A stretch of 38,150 nt of DNA, taken from assembly GCA_007130845.1 (NCBI GenBank), contig SLRP01000203.1, positions 1 to 38,150 of the forward strand. Reading direction: 5' to 3'. This stretch comes from Kiritimatiellia bacterium. Lineage in GTDB: Bacteria > Verrucomicrobiota > Kiritimatiellia > SLAD01. The notes below the pieces were generated by a model. That model made no database searches. It saw only the letters and a list, made by a program, of their open reading frames with translations, and was not told the DNA's origin. Within the stretch, counting starts at the first letter, position 1; each line of letters opens with the position of its first letter. Shown here in pieces: positions 4,051 to 6,796 of this stretch. The position numbers and the translations under genes were made by a program.

Positions 4051-5217
4051 ATGGACAACGACGACAAAAGACCTCGCTTTGCAACCAGGGCCATTCACAT
4101 GGGACAAACCCCTGATCCGACAACGGGAGCAACCATACCCCCGATATACCTGTCCACCACTTACACGCAGGAAAGCCCCGGGGTACATAAGGGATATGAG
4201 TATTCGAGATCACAGAATCCCACCCGCACGGCCCTTGAAGCCTGTCTGTCGGGGTTGGAGGAAGGCGAGGATTGCGCGGTTTTTTCTTCAGGCCTGGCCG
4301 CCACGAATGCTCTATTGCAAAGCCTTCGGCCCGGCGACGGGTTCATAGCGGGTCATGACCTGTACGGTGGAACCTTCCGACTGCTGGAAGATGTGTTCAG
4401 GCCATGGGGCCTGGAAATAGCGCGAGCGGAATCCTCGGATCCTTCTGCTTATGAAAAGGCCATGAAGACGCTTGAGCGACCCAGAATGATATGGATTGAA
4501 ACACCAACCAATCCCCTCGTGGACTTGATTGACATAAGCTCAGTGGCGGAGATCGCAGGAAATAACGGATCTCTGCTGGTGGTGGATAACACCTTTGCGT
4601 CTCCGTGTTTGCAAAAGCCTCTTACCCTGGGCGCAGACATGGTTCTGCACAGCACCACCAAGTATCTGGGAGGGCATTCAGACGTCATTGGCGGCGCCCT
4701 GATAGCAAGGGAAGCCGGGCAACTTGAATCGGTACGGTTCATTCAGAATGCGGCCGGAGCCGTACCCGGACCCCTGGATTGCTACCTCATCCTCAGGGGA
4801 TTGAAGACCTTGGAGATTAGAATGCAAAGGCATTGTGCAAATGCCATGAAACTTGCGGAGGTATTGAACGGCCTGCCGGGAATCTCGCGAGTTTTGTATC
4901 CGGGCCTTCCGGATCATCCGGGACATGAGATCGCGAAAAAACAGATGCAGGGTTTCGGGGGTATGATATCGATAGAACTGGACGACGGGTTTGAACGGGC
5001 CAAAACATTTTGCACAAGCCTGAGAATTTTTTCTCTGGCGGAAAGTCTTGGAGGAGTTGAATCCCTAGTGTCGCATCCGGCCACCATGACGCATGCAAGT
5101 CTTCCGCCGTCGGAACGCCATGCGAGGCGCATCACAGACGGACTGGTCAGACTGAGCGTAGGTATAGAGGATGTACAGGATCTTATCGAAGATATAAATC
5201 AGGCCTTGCAGCCATAG
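4051..5217 (+). CDS. cystathionine gamma-lyase/gamma-synthase family PLP enzyme
   Basis: YSRSQNPT, ETPTNP, DNTFA, HSTTKYLGGHSD (PLP Lys), SLGGVESL, RLSVGIED. Follows cbs, which favours gamma-lyase. Confidence 0.92.
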   Translation: MDNDDKRPRFATRAIHMGQTPDPTTGATIPPIYLSTTYTQESPGVHKGYEYSRSQNPTRTALEACLSGLEEGEDCAVFSSGLAATNALLQSLRPGDGFIAGHDLYGGTFRLLEDVFRPWGLEIARAESSDPSAYEKAMKTLERPRMIWIETPTNPLVDLIDISSVAEIAGNNGSLLVVDNTFASPCLQKPLTLGADMVLHSTTKYLGGHSDVIGGALIAREAGQLESVRFIQNAAGAVPGPLDCYLILRGLKTLEIRMQRHCANAMKLAEVLNGLPGISRVLYPGLPDHPGHEIAKKQMQGFGGMISIELDDGFERAKTFCTSLRIFSLAESLGGVESLVSHPATMTHASLPPSERHARRITDGLVRLSVGIEDVQDLIEDINQALQP

Positions 5218-5234
5218 TCCATGGAACGGAGGCT
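5188..5234. repeat. 47-bp direct repeat, copy 1 (includes gamma-lyase stop codon)
   Basis: GAAGATATAAATCAGGCCTTGCAGCCATAGTCCATGGAACGGAGGCT, 42/47 identical to 5715-5761. Confidence 0.93.
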
Positions 5235-5308
5235 GGGTTCCGAAATGGGACACCCATTCAGTCGATCGGGCTTTTGAAGCCGCTAAAGCGATGACGGACA
5301 AGACGGCG

Positions 5309-5572
5309 TAAGCGGAGTCGGTTAAGGGTGGCGGGCAAGGGTTTCGGTTAAGAGTATTCGAGTAAGGGTGGCCGCGTAAGTGTATCCGGTTAAGGATATT
5401 ATACCGCCTTTGAAAGCGCCGCAAGCATTACCGCTACGCGATGTTCAGAGCGATGGACCACAAGCTTCTCATGCCCGAAAGGTTCCGTCATAATCCCGGC
5501 TCTTTACACTTAACCGGATACACTTAAACGGCTACACTTAATCGGATATCCTTACCCGACTCGACTCCGCTT
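5309..5572. repeat. inverted pair of 13-14-bp tandem repeat arrays (unit ~TAAGNGTATCCGGT) around a ~100-bp spacer
   Basis: Left units start at 5309, 5323, 5336, 5349, 5363, 5377, 5391. Right-arm CTTA ends fall at 5512, 5526, 5540, 5554. Perfect IRs: 5377-5394/5509-5526 (18 bp) and 5310-5320/5562-5572 (11 bp). Confidence 0.88.
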
Positions 5573-5714
5573 CCCCGCCTTCCGATATTCTCGCAGTCGA
5601 AACATCCGCTCATCCCTTTATACGAACAGGCTCCATTCACATCCATGAGACACCACAATAACGCAATCGTTCCGTTGCAATTATGACTCGATTTCGAGGT
5701 CACCCGGAACACAG

Positions 5715-5761
5715 GAAGATATTAATCAGGCCTTATAACCGTAGTCCATGGAACGGAGGCT
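5715..5761. repeat. 47-bp direct repeat, copy 2 (includes tsaD stop codon)
   Basis: GAAGATATTAATCAGGCCTTATAACCGTAGTCCATGGAACGGAGGCT, 527 bp from copy 1. Confidence 0.93.
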
Positions 5762-6796
5762 TGGATAGACATTGTCCGGGGCAGGCGGAGCCGATCCATT
5801 CAGTGACAGTGCACCGGCCAATCCGGCGATCATGGCTGCGTTATCAGTACAATACTCGAATGGAGCAATAAGGAGTCTGGATCCAAGGCGTTCGGACGTG
5901 CTTTCGAGCATCGTCCTGAGCCGTTTATTTCTTGCAACGCCTCCCACGCACGCGATAGCCCGGACCTTCTCATGAACTACCGCATTTTCAAGGCGGTCCA
6001 GCAGGGAATCAAATACAGCTTCCTGATAGGCGGCGGCGACATCTCCAAGGTCTTCCCCTGCCCTGGACTCAGGGTGATTCCTGACATGATACAGCAGGGC
6101 TGTCTTCAAGCCGCTGAAACTGAAACAGCAGTCGCGCCGCATGCCGTCTATCAGGGCTTCACCGCCTCTGCCCTTTCCCTTCAGTATGCCGCGCGGAAAA
6201 TCGATGCGGCCCGGGTTGCCCCCTTGAGCAGCCTTCTCAATTGCCGGCCCGCCCGGATATCCCAGACCTAGAACAGTAGCTCCCTTATCCAGCGCTTCAC
6301 CCGCCGCATCATCCAGGGTATGGCCAAGCACCGTGAAGTTTCGGACGTCGTCGACTCGGACCAGCATGGTATGTCCTCCTGAAACCAGAAGAACTACCAT
6401 TGGACAAATCTCATCCATGGACAAATCCGAACCGAGAAAAACAGAGTAAAGATGAGCTTGAAGGTGGTTAATTCCCAAAAGCGGAATATCTAATCGCAGG
6501 GAAAGCGCCCGTGCCGTTGTTACACCCATTAAAAGCGAGCTTGCCAGGCCGGGACCTTGCGTTACAGCAATGGAGTCAATGTCATACCAATCAGCCCCGC
6601 ACTGGTCCAGAGCTTGTCGTGTTACGTCCGGTAAAGCTTCAAGGTGGCGACGTGACGCGACTTCCGGAACGACTCCGCCATATTGAGCGTGTTCGGCAGC
6701 CTGGCTCAACACAATATTAGATCGTACTTCACGGCCATCAGCGACAACAGCGGCGGACGTTTCGTCGCAAGAGGTTTCGATGCCGAGAATCAGCAT
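5726..6796 (-). CDS. tsaD: tRNA N6-adenosine threonylcarbamoyltransferase TsaD
   Basis: LGIETSCDET, GGVVPEVASRRH, NHLQAH, VSGGHT, DDAAGEALDK, FSFSGLKT, CTDNAAMIA. Confidence 0.97.
   Translation of the reverse strand: MLILGIETSCDETSAAVVADGREVRSNIVLSQAAEHAQYGGVVPEVASRRHLEALPDVTRQALDQCGADWYDIDSIAVTQGPGLASSLLMGVTTARALSLRLDIPLLGINHLQAHLYSVFLGSDLSMDEICPMVVLLVSGGHTMLVRVDDVRNFTVLGHTLDDAAGEALDKGATVLGLGYPGGPAIEKAAQGGNPGRIDFPRGILKGKGRGGEALIDGMRRDCCFSFSGLKTALLYHVRNHPESRAGEDLGDVAAAYQEAVFDSLLDRLENAVVHEKVRAIACVGGVARNKRLRTMLESTSERLGSRLLIAPFEYCTDNAAMIAGLAGALSLNGSAPPAPDNVYPSLRSMDYGYKA

Follow-up and report, generated by a model that had tools for sequence, protein, structure and literature searches.

The window, that is, the whole stretch of 38,150 nucleotides analyzed here (contig SLRP01000203.1 of a Kiritimatiellia bacterium), carries two convergent genes and, between them, two inverted arrays of short units containing TAAG. 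A gene of the cystathionine gamma-synthase family is located at 4051–5217 on the plus strand (NCBIfam NF005871, 536 bits with a cut-off of 513; the C-terminus reads ...EDINQALQP and stop). The gene at 5726–6796 on the minus strand was assigned as tsaD, encoding the tRNA N6-adenosine threonylcarbamoyltransferase, by its relation to TsaD clusters in a protein atlas (feature score 0.98, structure TM 0.94), and orthologues of tsaD were present in the 11 genomes of the same taxonomic family out of 11.

A preliminary description, made from the letters of the window, had reported seven left and four inverted right TAAG units at 5309–5572, and the sequence agreed with it letter by letter. The left units, in 5309–5404, were TAAGCGGAGTCGGT, TAAGGGTGGCGGG, CAAGGGTTTCGGT, TAAGAGTATTCGAG, TAAGGGTGGCCGCG, TAAGTGTATCCGGT, and TAAGGATATTATAC, and the right units, on the minus strand of 5499–5554, were TAAGGATATCCGAT, TAAGTGTAGCCGTT, TAAGTGTATCCGGT, and TAAGTGTAAAGAGC. 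The period of 14 given for the arrays was exact in the right arm, with its four 14-nt units, but not in the left arm, since two of the left units are 13 nt long. The caps described on both arms were also found: AAGCGGAGTCG at 5310–5320 is 100% complementary to 5562–5572. The first left “unit” reads CAAGGGGAGTCGGT in most of the other copies presented below (copy alignment), and is therefore a cap and not a TAAG unit. Hence, according to the alignments and Tandem Repeats Finder, the left arm (5309–5404, plus strand) consists of the cap AAGCGGAGTCGG and six TAAG units of 13–14 nt, and the right arm (5499–5572, minus strand) consists of the cap AAGCGGAGTCG (5562–5572) and four 14-nt TAAG units ending in TAAGTGTAAAGAGC. 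The foldback core, or loop, lies between the arms at 5405–5498 and includes around 40 nt that are conserved in homologues from another taxonomic family.

The longest pair of complementary arm segments, 5344–5394 and 5509–5559, covers 51 nt with 82% complementarity. Tandem Repeats Finder returned a period of 14 for both arms, with 3.6 copies and 66% matches on the left (5345–5394) and 3.1 copies and 86% matches on the right (5505–5548). Folding as RNA, a check proposed in the preliminary description, predicted a very stable hairpin for 5290–5590 (-120.5 kcal/mol, z = -7.3), and none of 100 shuffled sequences was as stable. Furthermore, runs of at least three TAAG at 13–15-nt spacing were counted 26 times in the 2.2-Mb genome of the window vs once in the base-shuffled genome. 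These results, together with the folding of the shuffled sequences, indicated that the arrays are beyond chance. The inverted orientation of the arms allows a long, imperfect hairpin to form in several pairing registers.

The layout is not that of a CRISPR, a REP, or an attC site, as had been stated before. The test for a CRISPR was negative, the units being contiguous and without unique spacers; the 6–7 nt between consecutive TAAGNGT cores are semi-conserved (ATCCGNN). The test for REP/BIME was also negative, as each arm repeats a non-palindromic 14-nt unit in tandem and is not a single palindrome of 20–40 bp.

Copies and Boundaries of the Element

The arrays were found to make up the innermost 264 bp of a longer non-coding repeat, 484 bp in length, located at 5232–5715. 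The arrays and their caps had been taken for the ends of the element; the true ends, located 77 bp and 143 bp beyond them, are formed by terminal inverted repeats of 12 bp, with the consensus CCTGAGTTCCGA ... TCGGAACTCAGG in the aligned copies. When the assembly of the window (250 contigs, 84% complete) was searched by BLAST and nhmmer, using 5238–5714 or 5000–5950 as queries, the repeat was detected on 20 of the 250 contigs, and copies were also detected in related genomes. The sequence is thus not confined to a single locus, and its description as a MITE-like element with further copies was borne out. All of the 26 TAAG arrays counted in this genome sit within copies of the 484-bp repeat.

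The copies were 73–90% identical to that of the window and up to 92% identical among themselves, and their alignments started at 5233 and stopped at 5714–5718 (window coordinates), revealing sharp common boundaries. Six copies were full-length (427–484 bp), and many of the remaining ones were broken off at contig ends, which leaves at least about 14 insertions even if every contig-end fragment is paired with another one. The contigs C123 and C243 overlap and give one variant copy with a replaced interior, which is not an autonomous element. No open reading frame was common to the six full copies: their longest stop-free stretches encoded 63–89 aa and differed in strand and frame.

The “A” end of the MITE (5232–5308, plus strand), as defined by the alignment of the six full copies and the nhmmer profile, starts with the degenerate terminal inverted repeat gCTGGGTTCCGA, vs the consensus CCTGAGTTCCGA, and continues with a GGGACACCCATTCAG box and a GTCGCTAAAGCGAT segment. 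The “B” end (5573–5715, minus strand) closes with the terminal inverted repeat CCGGAACACAGG (5704–5715; consensus TCGGAACTCAGG) and is homologous to the end lying upstream of the transposase gene in IS1634-family elements. In the copy of the window these terminal repeats are complementary at 9 of 12 positions, and this degeneration means that the copy may no longer be mobile.

The copies differed from each other by insertions and deletions of 13–14-nt units. There were 2–7 units per arm among the copies; that of the window had the most left-arm units, vs 2–4 in the others. Most simply, such variation in unit number would arise by replication slippage.

One contig, C217, has a gene inside a copy. 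An insertion sequence of the IS256 family (C217:12867–14331, 1465 bp), encoding a Mutator-type transposase of 404 aa and flanked by an 8-bp duplication, CCCGCCTT, is nested in the right-arm region of this MITE copy, and it is single-copy in the assembly.

Additionally, public metagenomes were inspected. Several different flanks directly adjoin position 5233 in public metagenome contigs, and a 22-nt stretch of the “A” end had no match in the metagenome contigs that were scanned. In run X1 the summed contig depth over 5272–5352 and 5515–5595 was about 15–30 times that of the flanking genes, a value that is not a copy number and is consistent with a multi-copy repeat.

Direct Repeats Flanking the Copies and the Insertion Site in the Window

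Flanks of 200 nt, left and right, were compared for the nine two-ended copies, with 200 shuffles for each; the split copy C155, as well as C230 and the contig-end copies, which have one end missing, were left out of this test. Direct repeats adjoining both ends were found in eight of the nine copies, with lengths of 50, 75, 16, 45, 55, 93, 49, and 17 bp and identities of 88–100%. The alignment scores were 14.5–90.5 vs maxima of 11.5–13.5 in the shuffles. In C149 the downstream repeat begins 12 nt past the element end as placed, and C55, with a truncated right end, had no flanking repeat. The repeats differ at each locus and are therefore target-site duplications and not att sites. Two of the pairs, those of C99 and C217, were identical at 55 of 55 and 92 of 93 positions, respectively, suggesting that some insertions are recent, and from these comparisons of sequence we infer that the MITE has been mobile.

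Elements of the IS1630 type target inverted repeats. Palindromic targets were rejected here, since none of the 16 duplication sequences (both copies of each of the eight duplications) folded better than its shuffles, the lowest z being -1.4.

In the window, the left duplication extends at most over 5188–5237 and at least, with an element start at 5232, over 5189–5231, and its pair on the right extends over 5715–5764 and 5716–5758, respectively. The two 50-nt direct repeats are 88% identical (44 of 50 positions), and within the genome the sequence occurs at this locus only. The length of the duplication is given as 43–50 bp because the target resembles the terminal bases of the element, leaving one and six boundary bases ambiguous. 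The gamma-synthase-like gene ends within the left copy of the duplication, where its last 10 codons and stop codon lie, and tsaD, on the minus strand, has its last 13 codons and stop codon within the right copy. The ancestral, pre-insertion reading frames shared about 19 nt. The MITE landed where the 3′ ends of these convergent genes overlapped, and both frames remain open because the duplication of 43–50 bp gave each gene its own end.

The same gene pair was found in relatives of the window. In genome G003, which belongs to a different genus, the gamma-synthase-like gene and tsaD are convergent and without insert, and their stop codons overlap in TTAA (locus L205, positions 2550–2553). Two other relatives keep the pair with the genes about 190–240 bp apart. 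Within the genome of the window, five of nine copies are flanked by long open reading frames that clearly converge on them, these frames being counted from stop to stop and not as gene calls.

Both junctions of the window copy are spanned by contigs from four public DNA runs, which carry soda-lake, salt-lake, and alkali-sediment metagenome labels. No contig joining the flanks without the element was found in them, contigs being a form of data that drops rare variants. Around the homologous or array-bearing copies of genomes G116, G001, and G029 no abutting duplications were detected, and these copies may be old or partial.

Comparison With IS1634-Family Insertion Sequences

The IS1634 family comprises IS4-related DDE insertion sequences. 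Two autonomous elements of 1661 bp each, L177 (genome G103) and L176 (genome G028), encode transposases that scored 367 bits on NF033559 (IS1634 family, cut-off 100), the next-best family reaching 34 bits, and both elements start and end with CCTGAG(T/A)TC(C/A). The end of L177 downstream of the transposase gene was identical to the “A” end of the MITE at 25 of 25 positions (first 25 nt, copy C171). The end upstream of the transposase gene aligned with the last 100 nt of the MITE with E = 3.8e-7 (nhmmer, MITE model positions 355–455 vs L177 positions 1349–1249). The ends of L176 and of a further element, L195, were similar to those of L177, and a partial insertion sequence in G007, whose taxonomic family is also that of the window genome, shares 30 of its first 35 nt with the MITE. 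Both ends of the MITE thus match those of a catalogued family, and the preliminary description of the element as undescribed did not hold at the family level.

Long flanking duplications were observed in some of these relatives. L176 is flanked by a perfect duplication of 88 bp, and a MITE of 316 bp with the same ends, found in genome G107 (L227), by one of 133 bp, while L177 had no flanking duplication within 300 bp. Another IS1634-family element, in genome G022 (ends CCGAAGTTCC), showed flanking repeats of about 5–6 bp in three copies judged by eye, so that not all members of the family have long duplications. The MITE end CCTGAGTT fits the end consensus C-----YT that De Palmenaer et al. (2008; PMC2266710) give for the IS1634 family. 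The passages of the same article on IS1549 and IS1634 report that these elements make long and variable direct repeats of 8–514 bp, for which, by that account, no mechanism had been proposed.

The search with NF033559 gave no candidate transposase in the genome of the window (250 contigs, 84% complete); as the genome is 84% complete, the transposase partner may be unassembled, lost, or never have been present. Of the 151 genomes sampled from the class, 40 had a score above the cut-off of this model. Having such a partner within one genome is no strict requirement for calling an element a MITE.

Occurrence of the Arrays Across the Class

No arrays were found inside the autonomous insertion sequences with MITE-type ends (24 loci, 91 kb), and one array was found in the flank of one of them. 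MITEs with the same ends and without arrays also exist, such as L227 of G107. These results indicated that the arrays are an added internal module. A two-unit pattern of the arrays was present in 27 of the 151 class genomes, distributed over many families, vs none of the 151 with the reversed control. The array-bearing sequences of the class lie both inside and outside IS1634-type MITEs, and the unit TAAGKGTATCCG is better conserved over the class than the remaining MITE.

The arrays are old: full homologues with the same ends, arrays, and core were found in G116, a genome of another taxonomic family. In the alignment including them, about 40 nt of the core are conserved (CCGCCTT.GAAAGCGCCG.AAGCATG). 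The array-bearing repeats of G001, G003, and G009 are homologous to the right half of the MITE. In G062, G124, and G139 the arrays make up short hairpins, stand-alone or in tandem, whose cores differ and which lack a recognizable insertion sequence end. At L168 of G139 (contig C4, positions 615–980), three TAAG-array hairpins of 134 bp are arranged head to tail directly upstream of a gene start, and no IS1634-type end was found near them. Similar 14-nt units were seen, among the matches listed, in MAGs labeled as Akkermansia, Victivallales, Lentisphaerales, and Kiritimatiellae. These labels point to Verrucomicrobiota, as does the weak atlas match of tsaD. A scan of a genome collection with a three-unit pattern says little on distribution, as this pattern also fits 7-mer repeats, (GTTAAGT/GTTAAGG)n, and around 8 of 80 matches inspected by eye (out of at least 123) were true 14-nt units.

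The presence of arrays did not follow that of an IS1634 transposase: the latter was found in 9 of 27 genomes with arrays vs 31 of 124 without them (odds ratio 1.5, p = 0.47; the genomes are related and not independent). This result argues against the transposase as the protein binding the arrays, and not against a host factor.

Other repeats were observed during these searches. The tandem heptamers (GTTAAGT)n and (GTTAAGG)n (L041–L120) are intergenic in many phyla, including Bacteroidota, Gammaproteobacteria, Ignavibacteriota, and Desulfobacterota, among the matches listed, and as far as seen they are unrelated to the 14-mers. Short palindromic intergenic repeats of the TTTTTCCAATCGTTGGAAG type, several per region, were seen in L010 (G003, approximately 1290–1370) and L211 (G004, approximately 1360–1420). 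These adjoin array elements, lie also between the genes of the gamma-synthase-like/tsaD pair, and constitute a second repeat family of the lineage. In L190 (G022, positions 968–1028), the IS1634-family element with the ends CCGAAGTTCC stands directly beside a capped TAAG array, and an insertion beside or within an array element may account for this position.

Tests of Array and Core Function

The two arms of a copy paired no more strongly with each other than with arms of other copies (n = 7; p = 0.33 under RNA and 0.11 under DNA parameters), and no co-evolution of the arms was detected. In the alignment of the conserved core, none of the eight predicted core pairs showed a compensatory change. 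The scan of 4800–6200 on both strands against Rfam 15 gave no match at E up to 1. A scan of the region for promoters and terminators called one promoter-like site, as in the shuffles, and no terminator-like site.

Discussion

The feature at 5309–5572 is, in our reading, the internal foldback of a 484-bp MITE derived from the IS1634 family, which would be moved in trans by a DDE transposase of that family; we assign this reading a probability of roughly 0.85. The MITE is regarded as a non-autonomous derivative of the family because both of its ends are homologous to IS1634-family insertion sequences and because its duplications are long and variable. A transposase of this family would bind both ends of the MITE and link these to target strands whose cut positions are tens of bases from each other, and repair of the gaps would then duplicate the stretch between the cuts. 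As for the arrays, we think that the hairpin would most likely act as a structural stuffer or as a transcription barrier between convergent genes.

Bacterial MITEs such as the Correia elements and MITEAba12 resemble the element of the window in being small, non-coding, multi-copy, mostly intergenic, and hairpin-capable, with terminal inverted repeats and target duplications. Their duplications are typically 2–10 bp and of fixed length, whereas those found here are variable and measure 16–93 bp, and the hairpin arises here from internal inverted tandem arrays and not from the termini. Eukaryotic Foldback transposons also have inverted arrays of short tandem repeats with a variable number of units. 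In those elements, however, the arrays form the termini, while those of the window lie in the interior of an element bounded by ordinary inverted repeats (12 bp) of a bacterial insertion sequence family. The REP/BIME of proteobacteria are likewise short lineage-wide units that form imperfect palindromes between convergent genes, single or clustered and combined with other motifs. Their basic unit is a single palindrome of 20–40 bp linked to RAYT (Y1) transposases (see also PMC3733652), whereas each arm of the window has a polar cap followed by tandem copies of a non-palindromic 14-nt unit.

The likeness to IS1634 of Mycoplasma mycoides and IS1549 of Mycobacterium smegmatis lies in the end consensus C-----YT, in the homology of both ends to autonomous elements of the same class, and in the long variable direct duplications, 16–93 bp in the MITE vs the 8–514 bp stated for these two elements in PMC2266710. 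Nevertheless, the MITE differs from them in having no transposase gene, in its length of 427–484 bp vs 1.5–2 kb, and in its interior of inverted 14-bp tandem arrays and conserved core, absent from the insertion sequences. It also differs from most members of the IS1634 family, which are reported with duplications of 5–6 bp. In full-text searches of the literature, no description was found of the 14-nt arrays or of IS1634-derived MITEs with long duplications.

The preliminary description had proposed that the arrays could bound a foldback-type element or an emptied gene cassette, other copies of which would carry a cargo gene between the arms. The resemblance of inverted tandem arrays to the termini of Foldback elements, and the gene inside the copy of C217, speak for such an arrangement. 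However, the homology among copies continues for 77 bp and 143 bp past the arrays, to sharp ends followed by target duplications. The gene of C217 was rejected as cargo, since it is the transposase of a single-copy insertion sequence with its own inverted repeats and 8-bp duplication, and no open reading frame lay between the arms on any other of the 20 contigs. No copy thus carries a cargo gene, and this explanation, largely refuted, is now highly improbable. A dispersed family of genes for a structured non-coding RNA, composed of the core and the long stem, would agree with the very stable predicted hairpin (z = -7.3) and with the conservation of around 40 nt of the core between two taxonomic families; moreover, the “B” end corresponds to the region upstream of the transposase gene in the parent element, and a promoter there may read into the arrays. 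Against this stand the lack of any Rfam match at E up to 1 and of compensatory changes in the eight core pairs, an arm pairing that is generic and not copy-specific, and a unit number that varies freely among copies, while the terminal inverted repeats and target duplications account for the dispersal without an RNA function. We therefore regard an RNA gene family as unlikely.

A further explanation gives the arrays, and not the transposon ends, the biologically interesting part: the TAAG-array hairpin would be an independent and lineage-wide functional module, captured and spread by an IS1634-type MITE, for instance as a REP/BIME-like repeat, as iterated binding sites for a host or transposon protein, or as a bidirectional terminator or RNA-stability hairpin. 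The absence of arrays from autonomous insertion sequences with the same ends (24 loci, 91 kb) argues for it, as do the same-end MITE without arrays (L227 of G107), the two-unit pattern in 27 of 151 class genomes vs none with the reversed control, the superior conservation of TAAGKGTATCCG across the class, the five of nine copies between clearly convergent long reading frames, and the units seen in the MAGs mentioned above, from Akkermansia to Kiritimatiellae, among the matches listed. In G062, G124, and G139, furthermore, only the arrays match, the cores being different and no insertion sequence end being present. On the other hand, the 26 arrays of the genome of the window all lie within MITE copies, and the array-bearing repeats of G001, G003, G009, and G116 are homologous to the MITE beyond the arrays, so that the stand-alone hairpins may be MITE remnants. 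Neither covariation, nor arm co-evolution, nor a terminator-like site in the region, nor a protein binding the arrays was found, and the presence of arrays did not track the IS1634 transposase (p = 0.47). Taken together, an independent module is possible, with the odds standing clearly against it. Our boldest proposal is that the capped TAAGKGTATCCGNN array hairpin is a hitherto undescribed module, conserved across the class with a function of its own and scattered between convergent genes by IS1634-type MITEs; it might offer a conserved host protein repeated binding sites, or block transcription from both directions as a hairpin that slips between registers. This proposal is speculative, and we would give it perhaps one chance in a few.

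Under the preferred reading, that of an IS1634-derived MITE with an internal foldback, a landing where two gene ends overlap does no damage, since both genes retain a complete terminal stretch, and this may explain the persistence of such elements at gene junctions. The MITE also has consequences for annotation, since it breaks assemblies, with many copies lying at contig ends, and its duplications could pass for gene fragments. An element with about 20 copies, defined ends, and a recognizable parent family offers a clean example of the rare behavior of long and variable duplication, and its short non-coding substrate, combined with the matching transposases of L176 and L177, would make the duplication mechanism testable. 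The 14-nt array repeat, in turn, is found across the class. If the proposal of a functional module is true, MITEs with long duplications would be vehicles that install a regulatory hairpin without harming overlapping gene ends.
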